The translations under genes and the position numbers were made by a program. The notes under the pieces are model-generated. The model did not search any database, was not told the DNA's origin, and was given only the letters and a program-made list of their open reading frames with translations. Shown in pieces: positions 5,056 through 60,893 of a stretch of 64,000 nt of DNA. This DNA is from Clostridia bacterium. Its GTDB lineage: Bacteria > Bacillota > Clostridia > UBA1212 > DUPL01. Location: NCBI GenBank assembly GCA_050951325.1, contig JBMNIW010000012.1, forward strand, positions 544,001 through 608,000, read 5' to 3'. Positions within the stretch are counted from its first letter, which is position 1, and each line of letters begins with the position of its first letter.

Positions 5056-6465
5056 ATGATACGTTTTGGAACAGGCGGATGGCGCGCTATAATTGGAGAC
5101 GGCTTTACGAAAGAAAATGTGAGAATACTTTCACAGGCGATTTGTGAGGATATGAGGGAAGATACAAAAGGAATAGTTATTGGATATGATAGACGATTTT
5201 TATCAGACAGCGCCGCCAGATGGGCAGCTGAAGTTTTTGCAGGAAACAACATTAAAGTGCATTTTATAGACAGAGTATCCCCAACACCCATGGTTATGTT
5301 TGCTGTAAAGGAATTGGGGACAAGGTATGGAATGTCCATTACTGCAAGCCACAATCCTGCTGCGTACAACGGTATAAAGGTGTTTACCGAAGGAGGCAGA
5401 GATGCCGACAAGAGTGTTACGGACAAGCTTGAGAGAATAATGGCTGAGGGAATGGAAGTAAAGGCTTTTGATTTTGACAAGGCTTTGGCTCAGGGGCTTA
5501 TAGTTATAAATCACGGTATCTATAACATCTATATTGACAGCATCATCTCAATGATTAACATGGATGCGATAAGAAGCAAGAATTTAAGAGTTCTACTTGA
5601 CCCCATGTTTGGAGTAAGCAAGACATCCTTGCAGACAATTCTTATGACTGCAAGATGCGATGTGGATATAATTAACGACAGGCATGACACTCTTTTTGGA
5701 GGTAGACTGCCTTCTCCGTCCGCAGGCACTTTGACAAGGCTTTCAGAGCTTGTTGTGGAAAAGGGATATGATATTGGAATTGGTACTGATGGAGATGCGG
5801 ACAGAATAGGTATCATAGACGACAAGGGCAGGTTTATCCATCCCAATGAAATTCTCGTCCTGCTATACTACTACCTTATCAAATACAAGGGATGGAATGG
5901 CGATGCGGTAAGGAATATTGCCACCACCCATATCTTGGATAGGATTGCGGAAGATCATGGCTTTAAATGTCATGAGGTTAAGGTTGGTTTCAAGCACATA
6001 TCATCAAAGATGGAGGAAACCGATGCGTTAATCGGAGGAGAGTCCAGCGGCGGTCTTACCATAAAGGGACATATTAAAGGCAAGGATGGTATTTTTGCAG
6101 CTTCCCTGCTGGTTGAAATGATTTGCGTAACCGATAAAAAGCTATCTGAAATGCTTGATGAGATTTATGAGAAATATGGAAGAACATATATGAAGGAGTA
6201 TGACACCAAGTTTACAGAGGAAAAGAAGCAGTATCTTATTGATCTTTTGTTTGAACAAAAGAAGCTGCCAGATTTTAGAGGCAGACTTGGTTACAAGATT
6301 GAGAAAATTAGTTATCTGGATGGTGTCAAAGTATACTTTGCAAATGGCGGTTGGGTAATTGTAAGATTTAGTGGTACTGAGCCTTTGATAAGGGTGTTCT
6401 GCGAAATGGAAAATGAAAAGGATGCAACTGAAGTTATAGATTTGGTAAAAGAGTTTATAAAATAA
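5056..6465 (+). CDS. Phosphoglucomutase/phosphomannomutase
   Basis: FGTGGWR, ITASHNP phosphoserine motif, DGDADR metal loop, GGESSGG, RFSGTEP. GGAGG RBS precedes ATG 5056. Confidence 0.92.
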   Translation: MIRFGTGGWRAIIGDGFTKENVRILSQAICEDMREDTKGIVIGYDRRFLSDSAARWAAEVFAGNNIKVHFIDRVSPTPMVMFAVKELGTRYGMSITASHNPAAYNGIKVFTEGGRDADKSVTDKLERIMAEGMEVKAFDFDKALAQGLIVINHGIYNIYIDSIISMINMDAIRSKNLRVLLDPMFGVSKTSLQTILMTARCDVDIINDRHDTLFGGRLPSPSAGTLTRLSELVVEKGYDIGIGTDGDADRIGIIDDKGRFIHPNEILVLLYYYLIKYKGWNGDAVRNIATTHILDRIAEDHGFKCHEVKVGFKHISSKMEETDALIGGESSGGLTIKGHIKGKDGIFAASLLVEMICVTDKKLSEMLDEIYEKYGRTYMKEYDTKFTEEKKQYLIDLLFEQKKLPDFRGRLGYKIEKISYLDGVKVYFANGGWVIVRFSGTEPLIRVFCEMENEKDATEVIDLVKEFIK

Positions 6466-47465: not shown

Positions 47466-49781
47466 ATGTTAAAACTTGTAAATGTTACAAAAAGTTATGT
47501 TACCGGCGATTTCAAGCAGGTTGCTTTAAATAATGTGAGTCTTGCATTCAGGGAAAATGAGTTTGTTGCAATTCTGGGTCCTTCAGGAGGCGGAAAGACG
47601 ACGCTATTAAACATCATAGGCGGCCTGGACAGATATGACAGTGGCGAGATGTATATAAACGGCAGACCCACATCCGACTTCAAGGGTGTGGAGTGGGACG
47701 CTTATAGGAACAACAGCATCGGCTTTGTTTTCCAGAATTACAACCTTATTTCCCATATATCTATCCTTGAAAATGTAGAGATGGGAATGACTCTTTCTGG
47801 AATGTCTGCCAGCGAACGAAGGGAAAGGGCCCTTCGATTGCTTGACAGGGTAGGTCTTAAAGACCATGTCAAAAAGAAACCCAACCAGCTGTCAGGCGGA
47901 CAGATGCAGAGAGTTGCGATAGCAAGAGCGCTCGCAAATGATCCTGATATTATTCTGGCGGATGAGCCAACTGGAGCTTTGGATAGCGAAACAGGAGTAC
48001 AAATACTTGACCTTATAAAAGAGATTGCGAAAAACAAACTTGTTATAATGGTTACACACAATCCCGAACTGGCAAACAAGTATGCCACCAGAATTGTCAA
48101 TTTGGTGGACGGACGGATTGTAAGCGACTCCAACCCGTATGAGGAGGAAGAACACAAGCAGTCAGGATACAAACTCAAAATGACTGCCATGAACTTTTTT
48201 ACTGCTTTGAAACTATCCTTTAACAACATAAAGACAAAGAAATTTAGAACAATACTTACCTCTTTCGCAGCAAGCATTGGAATCATAGGGATTGCACTCA
48301 TTCTCGCTCTTTCGAACGGGTTTCAGATAGAAATAGACAAGTTTGAGGAAAACACCATGTCTGGATTCCCCATAATCATAGGACAGCAGGCGACAACTGT
48401 TGATATTGCCGATATGGGTAAAAAGTTTGGAGAGGAGAACAGGAAGTACAAGGAGTTTACAGACAAAAAGGAAGTAATTCCTTTTGACAGGAGCGAAAGT
48501 GAATTAATTCATATGAACAATATTACAGAGGAATATATAGAGTATTTAAAGAGCATTGATCCGAATCTGCTTTTGGGAACCACATATACACGCATGACAT
48601 CTTTGAACTTATTGAAACTTGACAGAGACAATGTGGCAAAGATTGTATCGATGCAAGACCTGGATATGAGTGTGCTTCCAAAAAAGTTTGGTGAAGAAGG
48701 TTTTGTTGAAAAGAACTATGACATACTTTATGGAAAAATGCCAGAGAACAAAAACGAGTTATTGCTGGTTGTGGACAAATTCAATAGACTGGACAAAAGA
48801 GTGCTGGAAACGCTAGGTTTTTCAACTTATGAAAGTATAGCTTTTGAGGACATAATCGGTACCGAGTTAAGAGCCATTCCTAATAATGACTATTACGTGG
48901 AACGGGATGGATTCTTTACACTGGTTGGCAACCCTGCGGACATGACTGAAATATATAATAGGGAAACGGCAATACCTTTAAAAATTGTAGGAATCCTAAG
49001 GATAAAGAAAGACAAGATGCTGGATGTAATCCGTACAGGCGTGGCATATTCTGAAGAACTGATGGAATATATTCTGGAGGATTCGGAAAACAGCGACATT
49101 GCAAAAGCCCAAAGGGAGGCTGATTACAATGTGCTTACAGGCCAACCTTTTGATTTGACAACGGAAAAGGGAAAGGAAGACAAGGAAAATGTTCTCCGGG
49201 TAATTGGAGCAAACTCTGTTCCTTTAATGATAACAATCTTTCCTAGAGATTTTGATTCAAAGGATGACGTATTGGCGTTTTTGGATGCGTACAATGAAGG
49301 CAAAGACAGCAAGGACAGGATAATATATACAGACATGGCCGAGCAGATAACAAAGCTTACGAAAAAGATAATAGATTCAATATCCATTGTCCTTATAGCT
49401 TTTGCTTCAATTTCTTTGTTTGTTTCGTCTATAATGATTGGAATAATTACGTACATTTCCGTACTGGAAAGAACAAAAGAGATTGGAATTCTGAGGTCAT
49501 TAGGAGCAAGAAAATCGGATATTACCTTGGTATTTAATGCAGAAACCTTTATTATAGGGGTGTTTTCAGGATTAATTGGAATAGCCATAGCGTCTTTGCT
49601 GGTCATACCTACAAACATGATAATTGCAAATTATTCAAATCTTGAAAACGTAGCAAAGCTTTCGCCTTTGCATGCAATTATTCTGATTCTTGTAAGCTTG
49701 TTCTTTACAATTGTTGGAGGATTCATACCAAGCCTGATAGCTGCGAATAAGGACCCTGTGGAAGCACTGAGAACCGAATAA
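47466..49781 (+). CDS. MacB-like fused ABC ATPase/permease
   Basis: GPSGGGKTT, LSGGQMQR, ADEPTGALD; FtsX-type SVLERTKEIGILRSLGA. Confidence 0.92.
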   Translation: MLKLVNVTKSYVTGDFKQVALNNVSLAFRENEFVAILGPSGGGKTTLLNIIGGLDRYDSGEMYINGRPTSDFKGVEWDAYRNNSIGFVFQNYNLISHISILENVEMGMTLSGMSASERRERALRLLDRVGLKDHVKKKPNQLSGGQMQRVAIARALANDPDIILADEPTGALDSETGVQILDLIKEIAKNKLVIMVTHNPELANKYATRIVNLVDGRIVSDSNPYEEEEHKQSGYKLKMTAMNFFTALKLSFNNIKTKKFRTILTSFAASIGIIGIALILALSNGFQIEIDKFEENTMSGFPIIIGQQATTVDIADMGKKFGEENRKYKEFTDKKEVIPFDRSESELIHMNNITEEYIEYLKSIDPNLLLGTTYTRMTSLNLLKLDRDNVAKIVSMQDLDMSVLPKKFGEEGFVEKNYDILYGKMPENKNELLLVVDKFNRLDKRVLETLGFSTYESIAFEDIIGTELRAIPNNDYYVERDGFFTLVGNPADMTEIYNRETAIPLKIVGILRIKKDKMLDVIRTGVAYSEELMEYILEDSENSDIAKAQREADYNVLTGQPFDLTTEKGKEDKENVLRVIGANSVPLMITIFPRDFDSKDDVLAFLDAYNEGKDSKDRIIYTDMAEQITKLTKKIIDSISIVLIAFASISLFVSSIMIGIITYISVLERTKEIGILRSLGARKSDITLVFNAETFIIGVFSGLIGIAIASLLVIPTNMIIANYSNLENVAKLSPLHAIILILVSLFFTIVGGFIPSLIAANKDPVEALRTE

Positions 49782-49905: not shown

Positions 49906-50088
49906 TTATCTGTCTACCAGTGCCCTGCTCTTATAGCTTGCACACATGCTTTCATCAATATCTTCAGTTGCGCAGTTCATTTTAGGCGTAACCTTTATAG
50001 CTGACAAAGTACAGCTGTTTTCAAGCGTATCGTTAAAAGAGCAGCTTGCCACATCACAAGAAATAGACTGACATTTTTTATGGCTCAT
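49906..50088 (-). CDS. DUF1540-type small Cys protein
   Basis: ISCDVASCSFN..CTLSAIKV...MCASY; AGGTGG RBS. Confidence 0.75.
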   Translation of the reverse strand: MSHKKCQSISCDVASCSFNDTLENSCTLSAIKVTPKMNCATEDIDESMCASYKSRALVDR

Positions 50089-50188
50089 TTTAGTTCCACC
50101 TTTCAAGTCAACCTTTGTACGGAATTACCGTACAGTTGTATTTTGTCCTGAAAAACGTTATTCTTTCATGTAATTTTAGCCTGATATA

Positions 50189-50217
50189 TTGACAATGGTA
50201 ATCGGTTAGTATAAAAT
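50189..50217 (+). promoter_or_regulatory. Sigma-A promoter of the riboswitch-led operon
   Basis: TTGACA-17 nt-TAAAAT. Confidence 0.7.
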
Positions 50218-50263
50218 CTAAATGCTTTGATATTTTTTTAACAATATTAAAGTGAAAAAAATA

Positions 50264-50365
50264 CTGGTTCCGAGTGTTTTCTACCTAAAGCCAAAATGGC
50301 CATGGGGAAACACCGATAGGGTTGAAAGAGAAATTTTTCAGCCTTCCGGAGTTGAAAAGGAACAG
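50264..50365 (+). ncRNA. Molybdenum/tungsten cofactor (Moco RNA motif) riboswitch aptamer
   Basis: P1 GTTCC/GGAAC; conserved TCCGAG, ACCTAA and ATGG; GAAA-tetraloop stem GGGTTGAAAGA/TTTTTCAGCCT; TTGAAAAGG 3' end; Moco-related genes downstream. Confidence 0.8.
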
Positions 50366-50402
50366 GAAAGAAATCACCCTTATGGGTGGTAATTTCTTTA
50401 TG

Positions 50403-50439
50403 TTCTCTTGTTCCGGACGGAATCAAGAGAATTTTTTTT
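50403..50439 (+). terminator. Riboswitch expression-platform terminator
   Basis: TTCTCTTGTTCC-GGAC-GGAATCAAGAGAA followed by a T-run, ~30 nt upstream of the first ATG. Confidence 0.8.
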
Positions 50440-50468
50440 GATAAAGAAATTAAAAGGAGAAGAATAAA

Positions 50469-51665
50469 ATGAAAAAGCATCTATTAATCTTGGCGATATT
50501 TGTATTAGTTTTAGCACTGGCTGCTGGGTGTGCAAATAATAACGGTCAGAACACCACACCAACACCTACTGATGCACCCCAGTCCTATGAGGATGACGAC
50601 TATATTCTTGAAATTGTAGGAATCGGGGATGAAACCATCAAAGTGACAAAAGGGCAAATCAGGGAACTTGCCGCAGGTGGCAAACTTGTTGAGTACGGCG
50701 AAGACCAGCCTGCATACGCATCCGACAAGACTGACGATGATGGCAACAAAATTCCACACACATTGAAAGGAGTATATTTCGACGATATACTTGAAGTTTA
50801 TGCAGATGACGCAAAAACTTCCGATTTTACAAGCATGTCTATTTATGCCGAAGACGGTTACGAGACAATTCTTTCAGCTGATGTCTTCAACGTAGAACAA
50901 GGCGGAGTTAAAATGATTGTTGCCTTTGAGTATGACGGCATTGAGCTTAATCCAAATGAGAAGAGCGGAGCTTTGAGAGTTGTTTTTCCTGACAAGCCGG
51001 CAAATACCTGGGCAAAACAGGTTTCCAAGATAGTTTTGGCAAGTGAGGAAGATGAGGAAACAGTTCCGGAAACTGAAAGCGTATACTTCTCAGAATCAAC
51101 CGGAGACAAATATGACGGTAGTTATGAGGTAGACGGCACTACATATTATGGAACAAGCTTCAAAAAAATATTTGACGACGGAATATTGAAGAGCGGTGAT
51201 AAGGCCCAGATGTTCGTATATTCGTGGGATGGAACCGAGTATACAAGCTTGAAGACAAAAGAGTATTACGAGGATGCGTTCTTGGTTTATGCATCAAAGG
51301 ATGCTGACAGTGACGAGTTTGCTCAAGAGAAGGACGCACCGGTATTCAATGGGGCAAACATTTTAAAAGGCATGAAGGTAAAACACACCATGTATGTGAC
51401 TGTTGAAAACACTTCTTTTGCAGTACTTGACAAAGTTTTTGAAAAGCTTGATTCCAAAGGCAAAGGCAGTATTCTTGTTAGTGAGCTGCTTGATGAAATA
51501 AATATGAAAGAAGCGTCAATCTATACCATAACCGGGGTTGACGGCACTGAAAAACAGGCAAAGAAAGAAGATTTAAAGGATATAAGGATTGAGTCAACAG
51601 ATGAAGGATACGTTGTTTCAGTTGATGGCAGTGAGTTTGTAATATTGAGCATACAGGCGAAATGA
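50469..51665 (+). CDS. Lipoprotein with repeated molybdopterin-binding (Oxidored_molyb/sulfite-oxidase-like) domains, no catalytic Cys
   Basis: Lipobox LAAGC; KGVYFDDIL..AEDGY..VAFEYDG..GALRVVFP..WAKQVSKI pattern, plus degenerate repeats. Confidence 0.7.
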   Translation: MKKHLLILAIFVLVLALAAGCANNNGQNTTPTPTDAPQSYEDDDYILEIVGIGDETIKVTKGQIRELAAGGKLVEYGEDQPAYASDKTDDDGNKIPHTLKGVYFDDILEVYADDAKTSDFTSMSIYAEDGYETILSADVFNVEQGGVKMIVAFEYDGIELNPNEKSGALRVVFPDKPANTWAKQVSKIVLASEEDEETVPETESVYFSESTGDKYDGSYEVDGTTYYGTSFKKIFDDGILKSGDKAQMFVYSWDGTEYTSLKTKEYYEDAFLVYASKDADSDEFAQEKDAPVFNGANILKGMKVKHTMYVTVENTSFAVLDKVFEKLDSKGKGSILVSELLDEINMKEASIYTITGVDGTEKQAKKEDLKDIRIESTDEGYVVSVDGSEFVILSIQAK

Positions 51666-52228
51666 GGAAGGTTATTAAATCATATTCTGTTTTGGATCTG
51701 GTATTAATAGCGATGCTAGCAGCCCTTGCTACAGGCTTCAAGACTGTTGCAAACACACTGGTCAAGTTAATAACAGGTCCTTTGGGAATCCCAGGAGGGG
51801 CTTTGGCAGGCGGATTTTATATGATGTGGCTTGCCATTGGGCATTCGGTAGTTCGTAAATTTGGGGTATCTTTCATGATATCCCTTGTCCAGGCTCTCGT
51901 ACTATTTACAACCAGCGCACCAGGCAGCCACGGCATCTGGACTTTCATAACGTATTTGATTCCCGGACTTTGCGTTGACATTGTGTTTCTCTTTGCAAGA
52001 AAAAACAATGCCAATGTTCTGCATTTCATGATTGCCGTGATGATGGCAAATGTACTGGGCACACTAGGGAGCTTTTTGCTATGGTTCAGGTTATCCTGGT
52101 TGTGGCTTGCGTTTAGCCTGACTGCAGCGGCTTTATCCGGAGCAATTGGAGGGCTTGTGGCATATTCTGTTGATAAGGGAATTAGGAGAATTGGTTTAAT
52201 TTTCAAAGAGGATGGGGCAGATCAATGA
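51662..52228 (+). CDS. ECF transporter S component
   Basis: ~190-aa, ~6-TM protein with DLVLIAMLAAL (AxxxA) helix 1; EcfA/A'/T in the same operon. Confidence 0.8.
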   Translation: MRKVIKSYSVLDLVLIAMLAALATGFKTVANTLVKLITGPLGIPGGALAGGFYMMWLAIGHSVVRKFGVSFMISLVQALVLFTTSAPGSHGIWTFITYLIPGLCVDIVFLFARKNNANVLHFMIAVMMANVLGTLGSFLLWFRLSWLWLAFSLTAAALSGAIGGLVAYSVDKGIRRIGLIFKEDGADQ

Positions 52229-53670
52229 AAAGAGCACTATTGATACTGACAGTTGTCTTGTTGGTGATTTTTGCAGGATGCACGAACAAGGAAAGTGAAC
52301 CAGGCAAATACATAACCGTAAACGGGGATATAGAAGGCGTCTCTGTAGAAGTGAACTTGAGTGATATTTCAAAAGAAGAGATAGCAATAAAGGATACACT
52401 TTACAAAGGGGTGCGTTTGTCAAAGGTTCTTGAGAAGGTTTCACTACTGGCACCTGTTGATAAGAGCTATGTAATGATAACAGCCATAGACGGAGTGTCT
52501 GCACTAATTGATGCGGAGACTGCCAACTTGTGTCATGTTGTCGAAGTAGAAGGAGTTTTGAACATAAAGGCTCCGGAACATCCGAGGGTTGTTGGTATCA
52601 AGCATGTTCTTGAGATTACAATAGTTGCCCATGAGGATGTGGAAATTTCTGATGAGAATTCTCTAAAAATTGTGGATCAAGAGGGTGACAGACGTATAAG
52701 TTTTGGAAACTGCAAGCTCCTTATGTTTGAGAAATCAGGTGAAAGTAGACAGAACGGAAATCTCGCTGTGAAGTATGTAAAGAAAGCGCCATTAAAGGCG
52801 GAAGAATTCATCGGCGATGATTTCGTACTTTACTTCGACAACTATGACATGCTGAAAGTGGATAGGGATTATGCAGGTGTTTTTGTTTGGGAAAATGGCA
52901 GAATATATTATGAAACGGACGAGAGGTACGATAGTCCTGTTACAGGTATTGTGACAGGCGTCGACACCGTTATATTCGATGCCTTTGACATGATGAAGAT
53001 ATTATTGGATAAGAATGAAATGGTTATGTTTATCCTGCCTGACGGGTTGTCTTACGAGCAGGTGGAATATTACAAGGATAACCTTACAATATTATCAGGC
53101 AATTACAAAAAAGCAGCCAGCGTGAACCCAGCCATATCAAATGTGGCTTTGGCAGCAATAATTACCGGACAATCACCTTTTGCAACAGGCATAACAAAGA
53201 GGGAAGTAAAAGCTCCTAACGTAAAGGACATTTTTGAATACGTTGTCAGTAAAGGGAAAACGGCATCATATATTGAAGGGAATTCAGTATTGGTTGTAAC
53301 CTCGGAAAAGCCAAAACTGAATGTAGCCAACTCGGAAGGATATACTGATAAAGGCGTATTTGAAACAGCCATGTATGAACTGGGCAAAAATCCTGATTTT
53401 TTATTCATACATTTCCACGGCATTGATGATGTAAATCACGAGTACTCTCCTTTGTCAGAGGAAGCCAAGCAGAAGATATATGAAATAGAAGGATATATTA
53501 AAGAGCTGGTTAAAAACTTTTATGGGCATGTGATAATTGTGCCTGACCATGGAGCAGTGACTATAGAAGACACGGATGGGACAAAAAGAGGAAAACACAG
53601 CTTGTTCAAGTATGGAGACATGTATGTGCCCTTCTACTATTTTGAAAGGGGTAGTTTGATTGAAGAATAG
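52225..53670 (+). CDS. Lipoprotein: N-terminal molybdopterin-binding-like domain + alkaline phosphatase/phosphodiesterase-fold domain
   Basis: Lipobox FAGC; YKGVRLSKVL..AIDG; FILPDGL, PAISNVALAAIITG, HFHGIDDVNH and VPDHG metal-site motifs. Confidence 0.75.
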   Translation: MKRALLILTVVLLVIFAGCTNKESEPGKYITVNGDIEGVSVEVNLSDISKEEIAIKDTLYKGVRLSKVLEKVSLLAPVDKSYVMITAIDGVSALIDAETANLCHVVEVEGVLNIKAPEHPRVVGIKHVLEITIVAHEDVEISDENSLKIVDQEGDRRISFGNCKLLMFEKSGESRQNGNLAVKYVKKAPLKAEEFIGDDFVLYFDNYDMLKVDRDYAGVFVWENGRIYYETDERYDSPVTGIVTGVDTVIFDAFDMMKILLDKNEMVMFILPDGLSYEQVEYYKDNLTILSGNYKKAASVNPAISNVALAAIITGQSPFATGITKREVKAPNVKDIFEYVVSKGKTASYIEGNSVLVVTSEKPKLNVANSEGYTDKGVFETAMYELGKNPDFLFIHFHGIDDVNHEYSPLSEEAKQKIYEIEGYIKELVKNFYGHVIIVPDHGAVTIEDTDGTKRGKHSLFKYGDMYVPFYYFERGSLIEE

Positions 53671-54208
53671 GAATGTGCTTATTGCACTGGTTATATTGGT
53701 TGTACTTTCCATTCTGTTTGGTGTTATGCTGTTTGTCTTTATGAATGAAAACAAGAAAAACGTGGAGCAGTATGAAAAAAGGGAAATTGCAATTACCATC
53801 AATGGAGAGAGGGAAGTATATACCTTTGAAGAATTGATGGAGATAAGCCAGCCGGTTGATTTTAAGGCAATATACAAGCCTAGCAACAAGGAACCCATAG
53901 AAAAGACCTATACCGGAATAGAATTGAGGGACCTGCTTGAGAAGTTGGGGGCAGACTTGGAGAACATGAAACAGATTACATTTACTGCAAAAGACGGTTT
54001 TCAGAAAGTGTACCGGGCAGAGGATGTAAGGAAGGAAACCAATGTATTTATAACGCATTTGGTGAATGGAAAGCCTTTCAACGAAGGCATTGATGTGATG
54101 GCATATGAAAAGGAACAGGAAGATGGCGGACCTTTTGTGGTAATAAAGGCGGAAGACAAAGTAAGCCAGAACAGAGTAAAAATGCTTGTAGAGATTGTGG
54201 TGGAATGA
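53660..54208 (+). CDS. Membrane-anchored molybdopterin-binding-fold protein (no Cys)
   Basis: N-terminal TM; YTGIELRDLL..TAKDGF..NGKPF..GGPFVVI..RVKMLVEI pattern. Confidence 0.7.
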   Translation: MKNRNVLIALVILVVLSILFGVMLFVFMNENKKNVEQYEKREIAITINGEREVYTFEELMEISQPVDFKAIYKPSNKEPIEKTYTGIELRDLLEKLGADLENMKQITFTAKDGFQKVYRAEDVRKETNVFITHLVNGKPFNEGIDVMAYEKEQEDGGPFVVIKAEDKVSQNRVKMLVEIVVE

Positions 54209-54870
54209 AACTTACAGTAGAAAATCTAACAGTAATGTTTAAAAACAGAATTATACTTGATAATGTATCATTACAAGTTGAAGCAGGAGAAATTGTTGCA
54301 GTAGTCGGACCAAATGGCAGTGGAAAATCCACACTTTGTACTGCAATTGCAGGTGTGTCTCAAAATTATGGACTGAGTACTGTTGGCAGAATAAGGATAG
54401 GTGACAAAGAGTTGTCCCAACTCAGTATTCATGAAAGATGCGCCTTGCTTGGTGTCATATTCCAGAATTCTGATAACTTTCTTTTTTCTCAATATGTTGA
54501 GGACGAGCTTCGGTTTGCTCCTGAAAATCTATGTGTTCCCAGGGCGGAAATTGAAACAAGAATAAAAGAAGCTTTGGATTTTACCGGTATTAGCTATTTA
54601 AGACATAGAAAAATTCAGGAGCTTTCGGGAGGGGAGAAGAAGCTGGTTTCAATTGCGTCTGTTTTAACCATGATGAGCAAATTCCTAATAGCGGATGAAA
54701 TAACTTCCGGAGTAGACGAGGACAGGAAGGTTCAGATACGGGAGATTCTAAGAAAACTAGCCAAAGACAATATTGGAATACTAATGATATCCCACAACAG
54801 AAACGATATTGAAATTGCTGACAGAATATATGTATTAAAGGATGGCAAATTGCATGATAGAACTGATTGA
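54205..54870 (+). CDS. ECF transporter ATPase (EcfA)
   Basis: GPNGSGKST, FQNSDN, VEDELRFAPEN, LSGGEK motifs. Confidence 0.88.
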   Translation: MKLTVENLTVMFKNRIILDNVSLQVEAGEIVAVVGPNGSGKSTLCTAIAGVSQNYGLSTVGRIRIGDKELSQLSIHERCALLGVIFQNSDNFLFSQYVEDELRFAPENLCVPRAEIETRIKEALDFTGISYLRHRKIQELSGGEKKLVSIASVLTMMSKFLIADEITSGVDEDRKVQIREILRKLAKDNIGILMISHNRNDIEIADRIYVLKDGKLHDRTD

Positions 54871-55507
54871 CGTATCCTTTGCGTATAACAAGAACAACAT
54901 GGTTCTGAGAAATATTACATATACATTCAAAGAAGGTGTACTGTATGTTTTGGGCGGAAAAAACGGCTCAGGCAAAACCACAATGGGAAAACTAATGTGC
55001 GGCCTTGTAAAGACAAAACAAGGTATTGTCAAGGTAAGCGGAACCAATATATATAAAAAGACTGTTGGCGAGATATCAGAACATGTAGGGTATTTGTACC
55101 AGAATCCTGATTTGCAATTATTTGCACCGACCGTTTATGAAGAACTTGTTTTTCCTTATGAACTGAATGGAACACTGACTTATGAAATAAAAGAGAGGGC
55201 GGAAAAGCTGCTCCAGGTCTTCAAGCTTGAAGACAAAAAGGACACCTTTCCTCTGCTCATGTCCTTGGGAGAAAGACAGAGGCTTGCTCTTGCCACAATA
55301 ATGATGAGGGACACCAAATTCATTATATTTGATGAACCGACATCCTCCATTGATGCGGAATGCAAAGCAATGATACATGAATTTATATTAAGCTTTGTTG
55401 AAAATGGAGGAGGAGCTTTTATAATATCACATGATGAGGATTTCAATTTGAACGGAGTAAACGGCATGAATCTGAGGATGGAAGGTGGAATGCTGTATGA
55501 AAAGTAG
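54854..55507 (+). CDS. ECF transporter ATPase (EcfA')
   Basis: GKNGSGKTT, YQNPDLQLFAPTV, MSLGERQR, FDEPTS motifs. Confidence 0.88.
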   Translation: MIELIDVSFAYNKNNMVLRNITYTFKEGVLYVLGGKNGSGKTTMGKLMCGLVKTKQGIVKVSGTNIYKKTVGEISEHVGYLYQNPDLQLFAPTVYEELVFPYELNGTLTYEIKERAEKLLQVFKLEDKKDTFPLLMSLGERQRLALATIMMRDTKFIIFDEPTSSIDAECKAMIHEFILSFVENGGGAFIISHDEDFNLNGVNGMNLRMEGGMLYEK

Positions 55508-56234
55508 ACTGGATCCAAGAATCACCATGTTGTTTATTGTACTGACATCCACACTGTCCGTCCTTGCCTCAAATGTATATTGGCTGCTGCTGGTCTTTTT
55601 ATTGACCCTGTTGTTAAACATTGTATTCAGATTAAATCCATTGAAGACTCTGTACAGAATGAGAAGGCTTGTGTCAATGATAATCTTCATAGCCTTTTTC
55701 CAAAGCCTCACAACTTCGGGAGGGAGACCAATTATTACTTTGCTCGGTGCAAATATTGTAACTTCCAAAGGACTTGTGGACAGCTTGTCTTTTGTACTCA
55801 GGATGGGCAACATAATGCTGGCCGTCATGCTCGGTACAAAACATGACAGTCGTGATATGATAGACGGACTTGCAAAACTCAAGATTCCTTATGAGCTGGC
55901 CTTTATGACAGGAATAGCACTCAAGTTTATTCCACTGTTTGGTCAGGAGTTTGCCGATAGAATAAAAGCCGTAAGTTTGAGAGGAATAAATATTAAGAAA
56001 CTCAAGCTGTCAAAAAAGATAAAAATCTATTCACACATTTTGGTGCCTGCAATTTCCGGCAGCATTATCAAGAGCAGGGATATTGCCTCATCCATGGAGA
56101 CAAGGGGATTCAGGGCGTATCCTGATAGAACCAATTTAAGAGTATTGAAACTAAAATTAGCAGACTATATCGCAATGATAATTGCATCATCAATATTTTT
56201 ACTAATCATATACTTTATGTTTGCAAGGAGGTAG
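55497..56234 (+). CDS. ecfT: ECF transporter T component
   Basis: LDPRI start, ALKFIP, SLRG and METRGF Arg motifs. Confidence 0.88.
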   Translation: MKSRLDPRITMLFIVLTSTLSVLASNVYWLLLVFLLTLLLNIVFRLNPLKTLYRMRRLVSMIIFIAFFQSLTTSGGRPIITLLGANIVTSKGLVDSLSFVLRMGNIMLAVMLGTKHDSRDMIDGLAKLKIPYELAFMTGIALKFIPLFGQEFADRIKAVSLRGINIKKLKLSKKIKIYSHILVPAISGSIIKSRDIASSMETRGFRAYPDRTNLRVLKLKLADYIAMIIASSIFLLIIYFMFARR

Positions 56235-56236
56235 TT

Positions 56237-56977
56237 ATGAAAGTATTAACGGTAACGGGGCTTAGCGGAAGCGGAAAGACCACCGTAATAGAGAATTTGA
56301 TAAAAGAACTAAAAAGAAGAGGTTATTCCATAGGAAGTGTAAAGGAGATTCATTATGAGGCGTTTGCCATTGATACTCCTGGAAAGAACACCTACAGACA
56401 CAGACAAGCAGGAGCAGAAATTGTAACAGCAAGAGCTCACAATGAAACAGACATATTGTATCCCGGACACCTGCCGATTTACGAAGTGCTCTCCCACTAT
56501 AATCAGGACTATGTTTTGCTTGAAGGAGTAAGGGACTGTGTGGCTCCGGAGATTGCTGTTTGCAAGGAAGATGCTGAGCCTGAAATAACTCCTCTTACGT
56601 TTGCAGTAAGTGGAAGGTTTGCAAACACCGGTGTTACGGAGTACAAGGGTCTTCCTGTAATATCAGCAGTTGATGACATAGGAAGACTGGCAGACCTTGT
56701 CGAGGAAAAGGTTCCGAGTTTAATGCATGATATAGAGTATGAATGCTGTGGTGAATGCGGTACGGATTGTAGAGGATTTCTTGCAAGGCTTCTGAAGGGA
56801 GAGGTTGTCAGTTCCGATTGCGAACTGAGTCAAAGAGAAGTCAAGTTGATTATCGACGGTCAGGATATTGTAATGGTGCCTTTTGTTCAAAGGATACTGA
56901 AAAACGCAGTGGTGGGAGTTGTATCGGAACTTAATGGGTACAAGGAAGGAAAGAAGATAGTAATAGAGATAGAATGA
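56237..56977 (+). CDS. mobB: MobB-family P-loop protein with C-terminal Fe-S Cys cluster
   Basis: GLSGSGKTT, GSVKEIH, DTPGKNTYRHRQAGA, LLEG; CCGECGTDC...C; VPFVQRIL. Confidence 0.82.
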   Translation: MKVLTVTGLSGSGKTTVIENLIKELKRRGYSIGSVKEIHYEAFAIDTPGKNTYRHRQAGAEIVTARAHNETDILYPGHLPIYEVLSHYNQDYVLLEGVRDCVAPEIAVCKEDAEPEITPLTFAVSGRFANTGVTEYKGLPVISAVDDIGRLADLVEEKVPSLMHDIEYECCGECGTDCRGFLARLLKGEVVSSDCELSQREVKLIIDGQDIVMVPFVQRILKNAVVGVVSELNGYKEGKKIVIEIE

Positions 56978-57627
56978 TGGGCGAAATTATTAAGCGGTTC
57001 GAGAGCAAGAAAAACAGTGTTTTTCTAGTAAGTGTGGAAGGAATCATGCAAGTTGTAAAGGTGCATGAATCAGAGGAAAAAGCCTACTTTGAATCAGAGG
57101 TTTTAAAAAGGCTTTACTTGTATGCTAACGTACCAAAGGTTATTAAGGTAGAATCAAACAGGATCTACATGGAATACATAGAGGGAAAACTTGCTGTTGA
57201 CTACTTTCTCGAATGCGATACTGAAGAAGTAAAAGAACTGGCAAGACAGATGCTATCCTTTTGCCGGGTTTACTCAGACCAATTTGATAACTTCCGTTTG
57301 TCGGATACAAACTTCCGGAATTTTATCGTGGTTGAAATGGACGAAGAAATTGAATTGTACGGTGTTGATTTTGAGGAAAGGGAAGAAGGCACACTGATAA
57401 AAAGTGCAGCTGAACTGTGTGCTTTCTCGTTTTTGTATGATGTTGATGCTTATAAGAAGAAAACCTTTTACAATACAATTGCATCAAATTGCTCCGAGCA
57501 GGAAGTTGACTTTTTAAACGACTATATTTTTAATAGCTTGAATAAGCTTATTAAAAGACGCAGATTGAATTTAAATGTTAAAAGTGTCTTTGAAGAATTG
57601 GTAATTGGCAACGGGCATATGGTATAA
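56974..57627 (+). CDS. Protein-kinase-like fold protein (APH/Bud32/RIO-like), small-molecule kinase candidate
   Basis: VVK..E, VPKVI, YMEYIEG, DTNFRNF catalytic loop, GVDFE. Confidence 0.65.
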   Translation: MMGEIIKRFESKKNSVFLVSVEGIMQVVKVHESEEKAYFESEVLKRLYLYANVPKVIKVESNRIYMEYIEGKLAVDYFLECDTEEVKELARQMLSFCRVYSDQFDNFRLSDTNFRNFIVVEMDEEIELYGVDFEEREEGTLIKSAAELCAFSFLYDVDAYKKKTFYNTIASNCSEQEVDFLNDYIFNSLNKLIKRRRLNLNVKSVFEELVIGNGHMV

Positions 57628-57673: not shown

Positions 57674-58408
57674 ATGAAGGTAACACTCAAGGACAAGGTT
57701 GTAGTTGTAACTGGTGCGGGAGGCGGCATCGGCAGCGCCATCTGTGAGGGGGTGGCTAAAGAGGGTGCGAGGATTGCACTTTGCGGCGGCAACAACCTGG
57801 AAAAGCTGAATGCCTCAGCGGACATTATTAGGGAATACGGTGTTGACCCATATGTTCTTCCAGGTGATCTTGCCAACATGGATTTTCTGACAACTTGCAT
57901 TGACAAAATAGCACAGCATTTTGGCAGAATTGACATACTTATTAACAATGCCGGAATTGCACACAATGCTCCATTTGAAGAAACAAAAATGGAGGATTTT
58001 GACAGGATAATGAATATAAACGTAAAGGTGCCTTTTGTTTTATGCCAGAAGGTGCTTCCATATTTGCGTGAATCGAATCATGCTACAATTATCAACATTG
58101 CATCTGTTGTTGCCCACAAAGGGTATGTAAATCAGGCAATATACACTGCATCCAAGCATGCCCTGCACGGGTTTACAAAATCGCTTGCAAACGAGGTCTA
58201 TGCTGAAAATATTAGAGTTCATACTGTTTGTCCGGGTGGAGTATTTACCGATATGGTTAAGGTAACACGTCCGGATCTGACTGGTGAGGATATGATTATG
58301 CCTGAAGAGATTGCGGATATTGTCCTATTCCTCCTTACAAGAAGAGGCAATGCTGTCATTGACGATATCTGCGTGCGGAGAGCTGCAAAAAATCCATTTG
58401 ATGTATGA
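57674..58408 (+). CDS. Short-chain dehydrogenase/reductase
   Basis: TGAGGGIG, NNAG, YTASK motifs. Confidence 0.92.
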   Translation: MKVTLKDKVVVVTGAGGGIGSAICEGVAKEGARIALCGGNNLEKLNASADIIREYGVDPYVLPGDLANMDFLTTCIDKIAQHFGRIDILINNAGIAHNAPFEETKMEDFDRIMNINVKVPFVLCQKVLPYLRESNHATIINIASVVAHKGYVNQAIYTASKHALHGFTKSLANEVYAENIRVHTVCPGGVFTDMVKVTRPDLTGEDMIMPEEIADIVLFLLTRRGNAVIDDICVRRAAKNPFDV

Positions 58409-58452: not shown

Positions 58453-58713
58453 TTATCCCGCAATTATGACAGGAAATATTTTTATCCTGTCGCCATCTTT
58501 AATCGGATCGTTCCAGTTGTGTTTGACACTGTTTATGGTTGCAAATCCAACTTCTTCATCAGGAATGTTCAATAACGAAACAAGTTCATCCAATAGGATT
58601 TCATCTCTTCCGTCAATTGAGAGTTCAAAACTGTTCTCGTCGTCCTTGAACCTTTCCTTGTTGTACTTTTTCAATGTGTGAAACAGCTCAACAGTTATAA
58701 CCATCTTAGACAA
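58453..58713 (-). CDS. MoaD/ThiS-family sulfur carrier
   Basis: Ubiquitin-like size; IKDGDRIKIFPVIIAG C-terminus; follows aor. Start may be 58704. Confidence 0.8.
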   Translation of the reverse strand: MSKMVITVELFHTLKKYNKERFKDDENSFELSIDGRDEILLDELVSLLNIPDEEVGFATINSVKHNWNDPIKDGDRIKIFPVIIAG

Positions 58714-60484
58714 ACTCCTTTATTGACTCATCTTCTTCAGCCAAAATTTCCTCGCAACGCCTTGCATATTCTTCTGCAATCTCGTTTGCCATATACTGAT
58801 CAAGTTTGCCTGTTGTTGTTGGTGTTTCAAAAAATCTCTTGGGAAGCTTTACATCCTGTATTGCAAAGCCCAAGGATTTCTTAATCTCTAGCTTTGTTCT
58901 CAGGATACGCTTTGCAATATCTGTCAGTGTTTCGTCAGTATAGTCAAGCCCAACGCATTTAAGGACCATCCTGATATTTTCCCTGCTGTATACTTTACGT
59001 GCAAACAGGCATATGATTAAAGAATTCAGCAGGCAGCGCTCGATTTCCTCGCTAATAAGGTAGTCTACGAGTTTTTCCTTGTCAAGCTCCTTGTCCCTGT
59101 TGGACTGGTCATATGAATAGCCTGCATTACAGAGGTGAGAATGTCTTGCGCCTACCAATGCGCCTACAAGAGAGCCGTAGCCCGTGTGGTAACCAGGCAT
59201 TTCGTTACCAGCAATCTGCATGCCAAAATCATAACCGCCATACTTCTTGGCTACGTGTTTTACTCCCTTGCCCATATCGGTATAGAGCTGATTGACACCT
59301 TGTGCAATGTAGTCGACAGCTTTAGCAAGGTTTACATAATCGCCCATCTTCAAAGGCAGAATGGTTTGCTCTTCTGTAATGATGCCCCTTTCAAGAGCTT
59401 CACAAGCCCATCCCAGAACAACACCGCAGGACATGGCGTCAAGCCCGTTTCTTTCAACAGCATCGATAACGTATAAAACTCCATCCGTATTATCAACACC
59501 AAGGAATGAGCCAAGTGCATAAATTAGTTCGTAGTCGTATCCGACCGAAATCGCTTCGTACTCATAGCCGTGGTCAAATTCACGTCTGAACTGTCCTATG
59601 TGTATGCATCCAACAGGACATCCTGTGCATGCCATTTTTCTAATCAGGTTGTTCTTCGCAAAGGCCTCTCCTGAAATATTTTCAGCATGCTCAAAAGTTC
59701 CAGAGGTAAGGTTTCGGGTCGGAAGACCTCCCATGGCGCTCAATGGCTCTACGTTTATGGGAGTGCCGGCATCATGATATTTTGCCATTACTTCTGTTTC
59801 GGTTACCTGTTTGTACAGTTTGGAGTAGGTCTTGAAATAGTCCTTGAAATTGGGTATTGGCATGGGAAGATCGCCTGTAACCTGCATTGCTTTCATAAGC
59901 TTGCTGCCAAAAACGGCACCCAGGCCCAGTCTTCCAAAATGTCTGTATGTGTCAACGCAAACACTTGCATAGGAGCACAGATTTTCACCTGCAGGACCTA
60001 TGCGGATGATGGAACGCTTTCCGCTTCCATGCTCCCTGTTTCTGATATATGAGCCTACCTTGTCGGAGTCCATTCCCCAAAAAGCGCGTGCGTCCTTTAT
60101 TTCCACTCCTGTTTGTGTAACTGTAACATAACAAGGTTTTTGAGATTTACCTGTAATTACTATGGCGTCATAGCCTGCATGCAGCATTGTGAAGGCGAGT
60201 CTGCCACCTGCATAGGACTCACCCAGTTCTCCTGTTAGAGGAGAAACAAACATGGCTACAGTCTTGGTTATGACTGGAAATACAGATGAAGCTGCGCCAA
60301 TTGCAAAAATTATAGGTTGATCCTCATGAAGGGGAGGCAAATCAGGATTCATGTTTTCCTGTAGGAGTTTTGAGGCAACTCCCACACCTCCCAAATAGGC
60401 TCTAAGATCCTTTCTCTTGTCAACCCTTATGCGGCCTGTTGAGAGATTTATATTCAAAACTCTTATGTAATCTTTATAAAACAT
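58706..60484 (-). CDS. aor: Tungsten-containing aldehyde:ferredoxin oxidoreductase (AOR/WOR family)
   Basis: YLGGVG, SPLTG, GPAGEN, GRLGLGAVFGSK, CTGCPVGC, GLDAMS, ICLFA motifs; GGAGG RBS before MFYKDY. Confidence 0.92.
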   Translation of the reverse strand: MFYKDYIRVLNINLSTGRIRVDKRKDLRAYLGGVGVASKLLQENMNPDLPPLHEDQPIIFAIGAASSVFPVITKTVAMFVSPLTGELGESYAGGRLAFTMLHAGYDAIVITGKSQKPCYVTVTQTGVEIKDARAFWGMDSDKVGSYIRNREHGSGKRSIIRIGPAGENLCSYASVCVDTYRHFGRLGLGAVFGSKLMKAMQVTGDLPMPIPNFKDYFKTYSKLYKQVTETEVMAKYHDAGTPINVEPLSAMGGLPTRNLTSGTFEHAENISGEAFAKNNLIRKMACTGCPVGCIHIGQFRREFDHGYEYEAISVGYDYELIYALGSFLGVDNTDGVLYVIDAVERNGLDAMSCGVVLGWACEALERGIITEEQTILPLKMGDYVNLAKAVDYIAQGVNQLYTDMGKGVKHVAKKYGGYDFGMQIAGNEMPGYHTGYGSLVGALVGARHSHLCNAGYSYDQSNRDKELDKEKLVDYLISEEIERCLLNSLIICLFARKVYSRENIRMVLKCVGLDYTDETLTDIAKRILRTKLEIKKSLGFAIQDVKLPKRFFETPTTTGKLDQYMANEIAEEYARRCEEILAEEDESIKEFV

Positions 60485-60893
60485 CGTCGACTTCCTCCAT
60501 TGTAAGACATTGATGTGGACAGAATCTTGTGCAGGATCCACAGTGTTTGCAGATTATTGGCAAATTCTCTTCCTCGTCAAAAAACACCGCGCCAACTATG
60601 CAAGCATCAACACACTTTTTGCATCCGGTACACATATCCTTGTTAAGCAGGACACCGCCTCCTTTACGTTCAACCAACGCACCTGTAGGACAAGCTTCAA
60701 GACATGCTCTGTCATCCTTGCATGCGTGGCATACAGTTGCATAGAATCCGTGTTTCAAGCCTCCGTTTGTCTTTATTTTTATTGCACTTTTTGAAATGGA
60801 GAAGTTGTGTTTGTTGACAGCTGCACATACGGTCATGCATGAAAAGCAGCCAATGCACTTCCTCATTCCGTCTGTTCTAAGCGCTCTTGCCAC
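60474..60893 (-). CDS. 4Fe-4S ferredoxin-like subunit of AOR
   Basis: CIGCFSCMTVC, CHAC..CLEACP, CTGCKKCVDAC, CKHCGSCTRFCP motifs. Confidence 0.9.
   Translation of the reverse strand: MARALRTDGMRKCIGCFSCMTVCAAVNKHNFSISKSAIKIKTNGGLKHGFYATVCHACKDDRACLEACPTGALVERKGGGVLLNKDMCTGCKKCVDACIVGAVFFDEEENLPIICKHCGSCTRFCPHQCLTMEEVDDVL

Follow-up and report, generated by a model that had tools for sequence, protein, structure and literature searches.

How does a bacterium come by the pyranopterin cofactor of a tungstopterin-family enzyme when its genome yields none of the genes for making that cofactor that we searched for? This question is raised by a 64,000-nucleotide (nt) stretch of contig JBMNIW010000012.1 from a Clostridia bacterium (hereafter the window; all coordinates are positions within it, and genes are named by their start). 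An operon at 50256–57627 combines a riboswitch, three exported proteins with the fold of sulfite oxidase (SUOX), a full energy-coupling factor (ECF) importer, a MobB protein and a kinase-like protein, and a gene for an aldehyde:ferredoxin oxidoreductase (AOR) lies close by. We consider it likely that this operon is a riboswitch-controlled salvage importer, either for a pyranopterin cofactor or for a derivative close to complete, in which the SUOX-fold proteins would serve as non-catalytic receptors. The substrate would be the tungsten or molybdenum cofactor (Tuco or Moco) or a close form, for example metal-bound or trimmed molybdopterin (MPT), and the host probably takes the cofactor up ready-made. 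The open reading frames (ORFs) at 50469–57627 form a tightly packed, same-strand string, and the operon and the AOR gene are laid out as follows.

50189–50217, +: promoter-like TTGACA-17-TAAAAT 5′ of the riboswitch; resemblance to the consensus only (11 of 12 positions)
50256–50378, +: Moco/Tuco riboswitch aptamer, P3-less variant (Rfam covariance match, RF01055)
50373–50437, +: probable expression platform, hairpin(s) then T-runs before the start codon; terminator-like hairpin at 50373–50390
50469–51665, +: lipoprotein of 398 amino acids (aa); N-terminal SUOX-fold domain at about 38–190, C-terminal half without an assigned fold
51662–52228, +: ECF S component, YkoE-type (PF09819, E = 1.2e-15)
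52225–53670, +: lipoprotein of 481 aa; SUOX-fold plus beta domain (1–262), then an ectoenzyme domain of the nucleotide pyrophosphatase/phosphodiesterase (NPP)/alkaline-phosphatase superfamily
53660–54208, +: membrane-anchored SUOX-fold protein of 182 aa, Cys-free; predicted partner of the S component
54205–54870, +: ECF ATPase A (TIGR04520, E = 3.1e-52)
54842–55507, +: ECF ATPase A′ (TIGR04520, E = 2.8e-42)
55485–56234, +: ECF T component, CbiQ family (E = 3e-26)
56237–56977, +: MobB P-loop protein with a C-terminal Cys-rich iron-sulfur (FeS)-type domain (MobB E = 2.1e-24; NF011064 E = 2.8e-39, below cut-off)
56974–57627, +: small RIO/Bud32-like kinase-fold protein (RIO1, E = 1.9e-4)
58706–60541, −: AOR, tungstopterin enzyme family (AFOR_N E = 8.6e-61, AFOR_C E = 3.7e-63)

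The host assembly (3.08 Mb in 12 contigs, 96.09% complete, 0.2% contamination) gave zero matches to MoaC, the MoaA C-domain (Mob_synth_C), MoaE, MoeA_N and MobA (TIGR02665). No MogA-type protein was found in it, the single MoCF_biosynth match being CinA, and no ModA/TupA/WtpA-like binding protein was seen, the SBP_bac_11 and PBP_like_2 matches being PotD, PstS (beside PstC) and a LysR regulator. The dimethyl sulfoxide reductase family (PF00384) and the xanthine dehydrogenase family (PF02738) likewise had zero matches, and AFOR_N had exactly one, the AOR of the window, 4.5 kb from the importer. The gene content of the host thus pairs a pterin-requiring enzyme with the absence of every known synthesis, metal-insertion and oxyanion-uptake gene searched for. 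We favor salvage because not one of the cofactor-biosynthesis genes searched for was found in the host, yet one AOR adjoins the importer.

RF01055 matched 50256–50378 (+) over the full length of the model (positions 1–135), scoring 66.7 bits where the gathering score is 36 and ending 90 nt 5′ of the ATG of 50469. This was the sole Rfam match in the whole window, with no thiamine pyrophosphate (TPP) riboswitch, unlike YkoEDC, and it is single copy genome-wide. The columns of the P3 stem are deleted in the alignment, which places the RNA in the P3-less (Tuco-type) variant. Regulski et al. (PMC2408646) found 58 of 176 Moco RNAs to be without P3 and the P3-less type to track tungsten-cofactor metabolism, and absence of P3 also served as the Tuco criterion in a 2024 study of Eubacterium limosum (PMC11725836). 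Downstream of the aptamer, the hairpin at 50373–50390 is followed by a second, imperfect hairpin and then T8 ending near 50437, an expression platform whose predicted RNA fold is ambiguous.

An original prediction for this locus had described 50469, 52225 and 53660 as exported proteins that share the SUOX fold, and the ORFs, Pfam, family profiles and structure models all agree with this description. Pairwise BLAST among the three proteins was too weak (E = 0.011, 0.036 and 0.27) and family profiles were therefore needed to join them. With hhalign, the 53660 family matched the 52225 family (91.8%, E = 7.4e-7) and, over the whole domain, the 50469 family (88.3%, E = 2.8e-6), and the 50469 family matched the N-terminus of 52225 (95.0%, E = 3.6e-8). 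Pfam Oxidored_molyb (PF00174) matched residues 99–196 of 50469 (E = 4.8e-6; 26.7 bits, cut-off 24) and, just under the cut-off, 53660 (E = 5.3e-5; 23.3 bits); these are its only matches genome-wide, and 52225 had none in our Pfam scan of the window proteins. NCBIfam gave no name to any of the three, a GEGP dihaem protein model domain falling on 53660 far below its cut-off, and neither a SUOX nor a PruR chain was retrieved when HMMER compared the 50469 and 53660 family profiles with PDB sequences.

The fold of 50469 is assigned from Pfam and hhalign, and structure models cover 53660 and residues 1–262 of 52225. The AlphaFold model of 53660, built from a 14-row alignment, has a mean predicted local distance difference test (pLDDT) score of 90.5 and consists of an N-terminal helix (3–39) and one beta-rich domain. 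Foldseek placed PruR first (7kp2, E = 4.5e-7), then sulfite dehydrogenases, sulfite oxidases and YedY. Alignment with VIA-align gave Z = 16.0 to chicken sulfite oxidase (3hbg; root-mean-square deviation (rmsd) 2.2 Å over 131 residues) and 15.6 to 1sox, and Z = 14.7–15.6 to PruR chains (rmsd 2.3–2.5 Å over 124–125 residues), compared with Z of at most 4.6 for unrelated rows. For residues 1–262 of 52225 (pLDDT 86.1), nearly all top Foldseek matches belong to the SUOX family, with modest E of 4.6e-4 to 3e-2, and the TM-score normalised to PruR is 0.54–0.59. The comparison with sulfite oxidase and YedY that had been proposed as a check thus places both 53660 and the N-terminus of 52225 in the SUOX fold.

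Among small proteins of solved structure, PruR is the closest counterpart. PruR (PDB 7kom, 7kp2, 7kos/7kou, 7rkb; PMC11194511), the best small match to 53660, comprises small exported SUOX-fold proteins that are non-catalytic and without a Mo-ligand Cys, and 53660 has the same architecture: 182 aa, an anchor helix, a single SUOX domain and no Cys. PruR is a proteobacterial protein that partners the DcpA cyclase/phosphodiesterase in signalling and holds small pterins in a truncated pocket, sandwiched by a conserved Tyr/Trp pair together with an Asn (Y104, W160 and N102 in Agrobacterium tumefaciens). The window proteins, in contrast, are encoded in an ECF operon of Clostridia-type anaerobes behind a Moco-class riboswitch.

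Sulfite oxidase, SorA/SorT, YedY/MsrP and assimilatory nitrate reductase share with the window proteins the fold, a C-terminal G-x-(L/P)-R...W/V-K-x-L-x-x-I motif and, above the cut-off for 50469, the Pfam match. The window proteins differ from these enzymes in having no conserved Cys ligand, no twin-arginine translocation (Tat) motif and no redox partner, and in being exported as lipoproteins or by an anchor. We found zero Cys in 53660, a sole Cys in 50469 (C21, in the lipobox) and three in 52225, namely C19 of the lipobox and the non-conserved C103 and C163. Across the family alignments the lipobox Cys is the only invariant Cys, so that, as far as alignment can tell, the conserved Mo-ligand Cys of catalytic SUOX enzymes is missing, with the caveat that among 12 homologues of 50469, 6 have a Cys at the position of A82, in a P-x-Y-A-S-D-K loop just before the invariant S85-D86-K87. 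Lipoboxes are present in 50469 (C21) and 52225 (C19), 53660 has an uncleaved N-terminal signal-anchor helix (helix 3–39 of the model), and an RR (Tat) motif is absent from the first 30 residues of all three. The lack of a conserved Mo-ligating Cys and the use of Sec or lipoprotein rather than Tat export, both parts of the original prediction, are therefore borne out. Export by Sec rather than Tat suits receptors that have to reach the exterior empty.

These observations bear on the possibility that the three proteins are true extracytoplasmic Mo/W enzymes with a non-Cys ligand. Such a role would be in keeping with the SUOX fold and with the invariant S85-D86-K87 in the loop of the 50469 family, where half of the homologues also have a Cys. 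We regard it as very unlikely, as there is no Tat signal for export in the cofactor-loaded state, 53660 is without any Cys, no redox partner domain is present and the host, by its gene content, cannot make the cofactor.

The original prediction had also linked the three proteins to an ECF transporter, and they are indeed co-operonic with a full importer (S, A, A′ and T). The S and T components and two ATP-binding cassette (ABC) ATPases are encoded together, as in group I ECF transporters, with both ATPases scoring below the NCBIfam equivalog cut-offs. YkoEDC and other group I ECF vitamin importers resemble this arrangement in their PF09819 S component, in having two A and one T component in the operon and in being placed behind a riboswitch for an end-product cofactor. 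They differ from the operon here in that its riboswitch is of the Moco/Tuco rather than the TPP class and that it further encodes three extracytoplasmic SUOX-fold proteins, MobB, a kinase and an ecto-phosphoesterase. ECF vitamin importers seldom have receptors outside the cytoplasm.

We co-folded the S component with 53660, using for each a 15-row alignment taken from the same loci. The predicted complex passed its controls, scoring 0.70 against 0.01 for the best of three. Of 80 solved complexes 58 attain the mark that we use for co-folding, and of 110 mismatched pairs 2 do; both counts are only rough here, since custom alignments were supplied. At least 82% of contacts recur between runs, with a partner pLDDT of at least 84. 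In the predicted complex, the anchor helix of 53660 (5–35) packs on residues 118–123 and 141–165 of the S component, including its last helix, and the 53660 loop 107–117, with the invariant D112 and G113, together with residues 143–146, touches the invariant loop 32–44 of the S component. We know of no solved complex of this type. The model supports binding of 53660 by the S component. Separately, S components of some relatives of the cassette (L014, L017, L018, L019 and L021) carry acidic low-complexity C-terminal tails of 60–150 residues that are absent from the window protein.

If the SUOX-fold proteins instead acted like PruR, as pterin sensors in signalling rather than as uptake receptors, PruR being their closest small structural relative would be accounted for. 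We consider this highly improbable. The operon contains neither a DcpA-type cyclase/phosphodiesterase (GGDEF/EAL) gene nor any other gene for signalling, and the DcpA-type gene is likewise absent from 19 related loci compared by synteny; the genes for these proteins invariably occur among transporter genes, and it is with the S component that a complex is predicted. We conclude that a receptor role is the better supported, because the SUOX fold, PruR as nearest small relative, Sec export, the lack of a conserved Cys, the ECF operon and the riboswitch coincide. The idea that a SUOX fold has been repurposed as non-catalytic cofactor receptors feeding an ECF importer is thereby supported on comparative and structural grounds, as a candidate role.

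The remaining proteins of the operon suggest how an imported cofactor could be processed. The C-terminal domain of 52225 matched Pfam Phosphodiest (PF01663; E = 7.2e-11, 42.7 bits against a cut-off of 23), with ENPP7 and ENPP4 as nearest solved chains (E = 0.005 and 0.009). Within its family, D273, S305, H396, H398, D401, D402, H405, D441, H442 and H458 are invariant in 15 of 15 aligned sequences, residues that we take to be the metal-site and nucleophile positions of the alkaline-phosphatase superfamily. The product of 56974 scored 21.6 bits against RIO1 (cut-off 22), has Bud32 and RIO2 as nearest solved chains (E ~ 1e-3) and retains catalytic-type residues K29, D111, N113, N116 and D132 in all 14 of the family sequences. 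MobB is the best-conserved protein of the cassette, at 55–68% identity across related loci. The strongest evidence for cofactor salvage comes from four features taken together, none of which was part of the original prediction: the riboswitch, the absence from the host of the biosynthesis genes searched for, the link to MobB and the kinase.

In a word-indexed database the 53660 family contained 14 clusters at E ≤ 1e-3, and its profile, searched against 1.84 billion representatives, returned 409 at E ≤ 1e-3 and 143 at ≤ 1e-10. Members are mostly 160–190 aa long, with a few multi-repeat proteins among them; these (P0034, P0074, P0076 and others) are 430–1608 aa long and contain up to 10 matched 53660-type stretches, making them tandem arrays of Cys-less SUOX-like domains. 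A scan of GTDB species genomes identified 19 related loci, mostly in metagenome-assembled genomes (MAGs) of Christensenellales and other Clostridia. By tblastn these share the order 50469-type, often an extra gene, S, 52225-type, 53660-type, A, A′, T, MobB and RIO-like. Several loci are cut by contig ends; with that reservation, we counted an S component in 14 of the 19, a 52225 homologue in 16, a 50469 homologue in 12, and MobB and the RIO-like gene in 15 each. RF01055 lies 5′ of the cassette in 9 of the 19 loci, and in 9 of the 12 where upstream DNA is present (L009, L020 and L021 are without a match at the gathering score). The extra gene between the 50469-type gene and S, of 160–450 aa, occurs in many relatives (L003–L021; examples are L004:7057-7977, L016:6790-7938 and L018:5445-6806), is absent from the window and had no Pfam family in 6 of 6 tested. 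At locus L008 an extra ORF (5729–6211) encodes another 53660-like protein.

The gene content of other cassette-bearing genomes resembles that of the host. All of the 19 other cassette genomes except G006 contain AFOR_N (18 of 19); MoaC, MoeA_N and the MoaA C-domain are each found in 1 of the 19, the same genome (G014) each time. In that genome, contig C24 has AOR, two MoeA genes, MoaA and MoaC together at about 3.9–11.6 kb, which could reflect a genuine dual strategy or a mis-binned contig. The order to which the host belongs is represented by 45 genomes, 24 of which reach at least 90% completeness; the cassette and AFOR_N each occur in one of the 45, in both cases the host, and MoaC occurs in none.

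We also cross-tabulated, by hand, a 301-genome sample from the order of one relative (G002), mostly MAGs without completeness values in which related genomes are non-independent samples. Here AFOR_N was found in 47 genomes, MoaC in 47, and a 53660-type match (E ≤ 1e-10) in 18, comprising 5 strong and 13 weaker matches. The 5 genomes with strong matches have AOR in 4 cases and MoaC in none. Of the AOR-positive genomes, 31 are without a 53660-type match, and 23 of these have MoaC. The weaker matches sit in the same kind of cassette near AOR, in the usual form S, 52225-type, 53660-type, A, A′, T, MobB and sometimes RIO-like. Minimal versions, with S, 53660-type and a short MobB near AOR and no adjacent A or T, occur in two MoaC-positive genomes (L024, G345 C31; L025, G263 C4).

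One alternative is that the ECF system imports tungstate or molybdate, much as metal ions enter through CbiMNQO and NikMNQO, and that the SUOX-fold proteins are accessories that bind oxyanions. P3-less Moco RNAs also control tungstate transporters (PMC2408646, PMC11725836), no ModA/TupA/WtpA-like protein was found in the host although tungsten must enter, and distant cassettes occur beside MoaC in 7 of 13 genomes. However, the metal is useless without MPT, and no MoaA C-domain, MoaC, MoaE or MoeA was found in the host; the same absence of MoaC, MoaA and MoeA extends to 18 of the 19 other cassette genomes. Furthermore, the S component is YkoE-type rather than CbiM/NikM-type, and oxyanion import would leave the conserved ecto-phosphoesterase and kinase without a role. 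We therefore judge this alternative to be distinctly unlikely. The tupABC and wor operons of E. limosum (PMC11725836) are similar in that a P3-less RF01055 RNA serves tungsten enzymes and that AOR/WOR has a small adjacent MoaD-like 'X' gene; E. limosum differs in making its own pyranopterin and importing tungstate by TupABC, neither of which was found in our host.

Several points weigh against salvage of the cofactor itself. Free Moco is very labile, and our reading leaves unexplained how tungsten is retained or inserted and how AOR obtains its bis-pterin form without MoeA and MobA. The 13 genomes with weaker matches include AOR in 12 and MoaC in 7, and the system is therefore not confined to auxotrophs. 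Conversely, 8 AOR-positive genomes of the 301 have neither MoaC nor a 53660-type match, and an S-component match was found in 1 of these 8, so that a rule by which AOR without MoaC implies the cassette is incomplete. The other seven (G068, G074, G113, G170, G236, G308 and G352) are AOR-positive without a MoaC, 53660-type or S-component match, possibly reflecting incomplete MAGs, fragmentary AOR genes or another cofactor route. In addition, the riboswitch class leaves the substrate of the transporter unfixed, because in E. limosum two iron ABC transporters and a FocA-type gene also lie behind Tuco riboswitches (PMC11725836), and the pocket of PruR is too short for Moco (PMC11194511).

The last two points, with PruR binding small non-Moco pterins in its truncated pocket (PMC11194511) and Tuco riboswitches controlling iron and FocA-type transporters (PMC11725836), would also suit an importer for another pterin, or for an unrelated phosphorylated metabolite needed in AOR maturation or function, with the riboswitch merely co-ordinating expression with cofactor status. 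We think this unlikely: it leaves the source of the AOR pterin unexplained in a host without a detected MPT pathway, and it fits poorly with MobB being the best-conserved protein of the cassette and with AOR in 18 of 19 cassette genomes.

We propose that salvage of the pyranopterin cofactor could proceed as follows. The SUOX-fold proteins would reach the outside in apo form and capture cofactor that microbes nearby have released, and the NPP-type domain of 52225 would trim it, splitting the guanine or cytosine dinucleotide forms (MGD/MCD) or removing phosphate. The anchored 53660, sitting on the S component, would then hand the pterin over, with the ATPases and the T component driving import. 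In the cytosol, the kinase may re-phosphorylate dephosphorylated pterin, MobB-FeS would pass the cofactor to apo-AOR, and the riboswitch would terminate transcription once cytosolic cofactor is sufficient. More broadly, we lean, by a modest margin of belief, towards the idea that some anaerobic bacteria treat the W/Mo pyranopterin cofactor as a vitamin, using a riboswitch-gated ECF route, extracellular capture on Cys-free SUOX-fold receptors, ecto-trimming, RIO-like re-phosphorylation and AOR loading via MobB-FeS.

Caenorhabditis elegans takes up dietary Moco from bacteria. The nematode resembles our proposal in obtaining the finished cofactor from bacteria and differs in being an animal in which no such transporter is known, where we propose a dedicated ECF system. 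As a rule, Moco/Tuco is regarded as something each cell has to synthesize for itself, and PMC9026282 states that most organisms cannot take it up. The transporter itself is of the known group I ECF class, and its proposed function was not found in print: the open full-text literature, including the available parts of PMC3766115 and PMC11477304, did not describe any Moco/Tuco ECF importer, or uptake of Moco by bacteria, subscription papers being outside the scope of this search. If correct, our reading would be the first account of how prokaryotes take up Moco/Tuco. Mo/W enzymes encoded in genomes without moa/moe would then be explained, among them AOR in genomes and MAGs without biosynthesis, and predictions of Mo/W-enzyme capacity from genomes would change. 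The cofactor would join the metabolites cross-fed in gut and digester communities, and stable natural cofactor-binding proteins and their transporter would become tools for working with a labile cofactor. In Syntrophomonas wolfei, two P3-less RNAs precede 'putative sulphite oxidase' genes, exceptions for which a 2008 study had no explanation (PMC2408646). These genes may be relatives of the window proteins, and cofactor salvage would then give a function to the 'sulphite oxidase' genes behind P3-less Moco RNAs.

Two further genes lie between the operon and the AOR gene.

57674–58408, +: short-chain dehydrogenase (SDR); membership in the system uncertain
58453–58713, −: small MoaD/ThiS-fold protein (weak matches: Ub-Mut7C 3.7e-4, ThiS 4.8e-3)

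The SDR was considered as a pteridine reductase analogue belonging to the system and set aside, because it is not conserved next to related cassettes. At its start, the MoaD/ThiS-fold ORF overlaps the end of the AOR gene by 8 nt, and its product ends in A-G rather than G-G. As the genome has no MoaE match, this protein is unlikely to be an MPT-synthase subunit; it may be a counterpart of the 'WorX' W-processing genes mentioned in PMC11725836. On the other side of the operon, a 771-aa ORF (47466–49781, +) reads as a fused ABC ATPase and FtsX-type permease, with a Walker A motif near residue 40, and is apparently unrelated to the cassette. Between this ABC transporter gene and the riboswitch promoter lies a 66-aa Cys-rich ORF (49906–50106, −).

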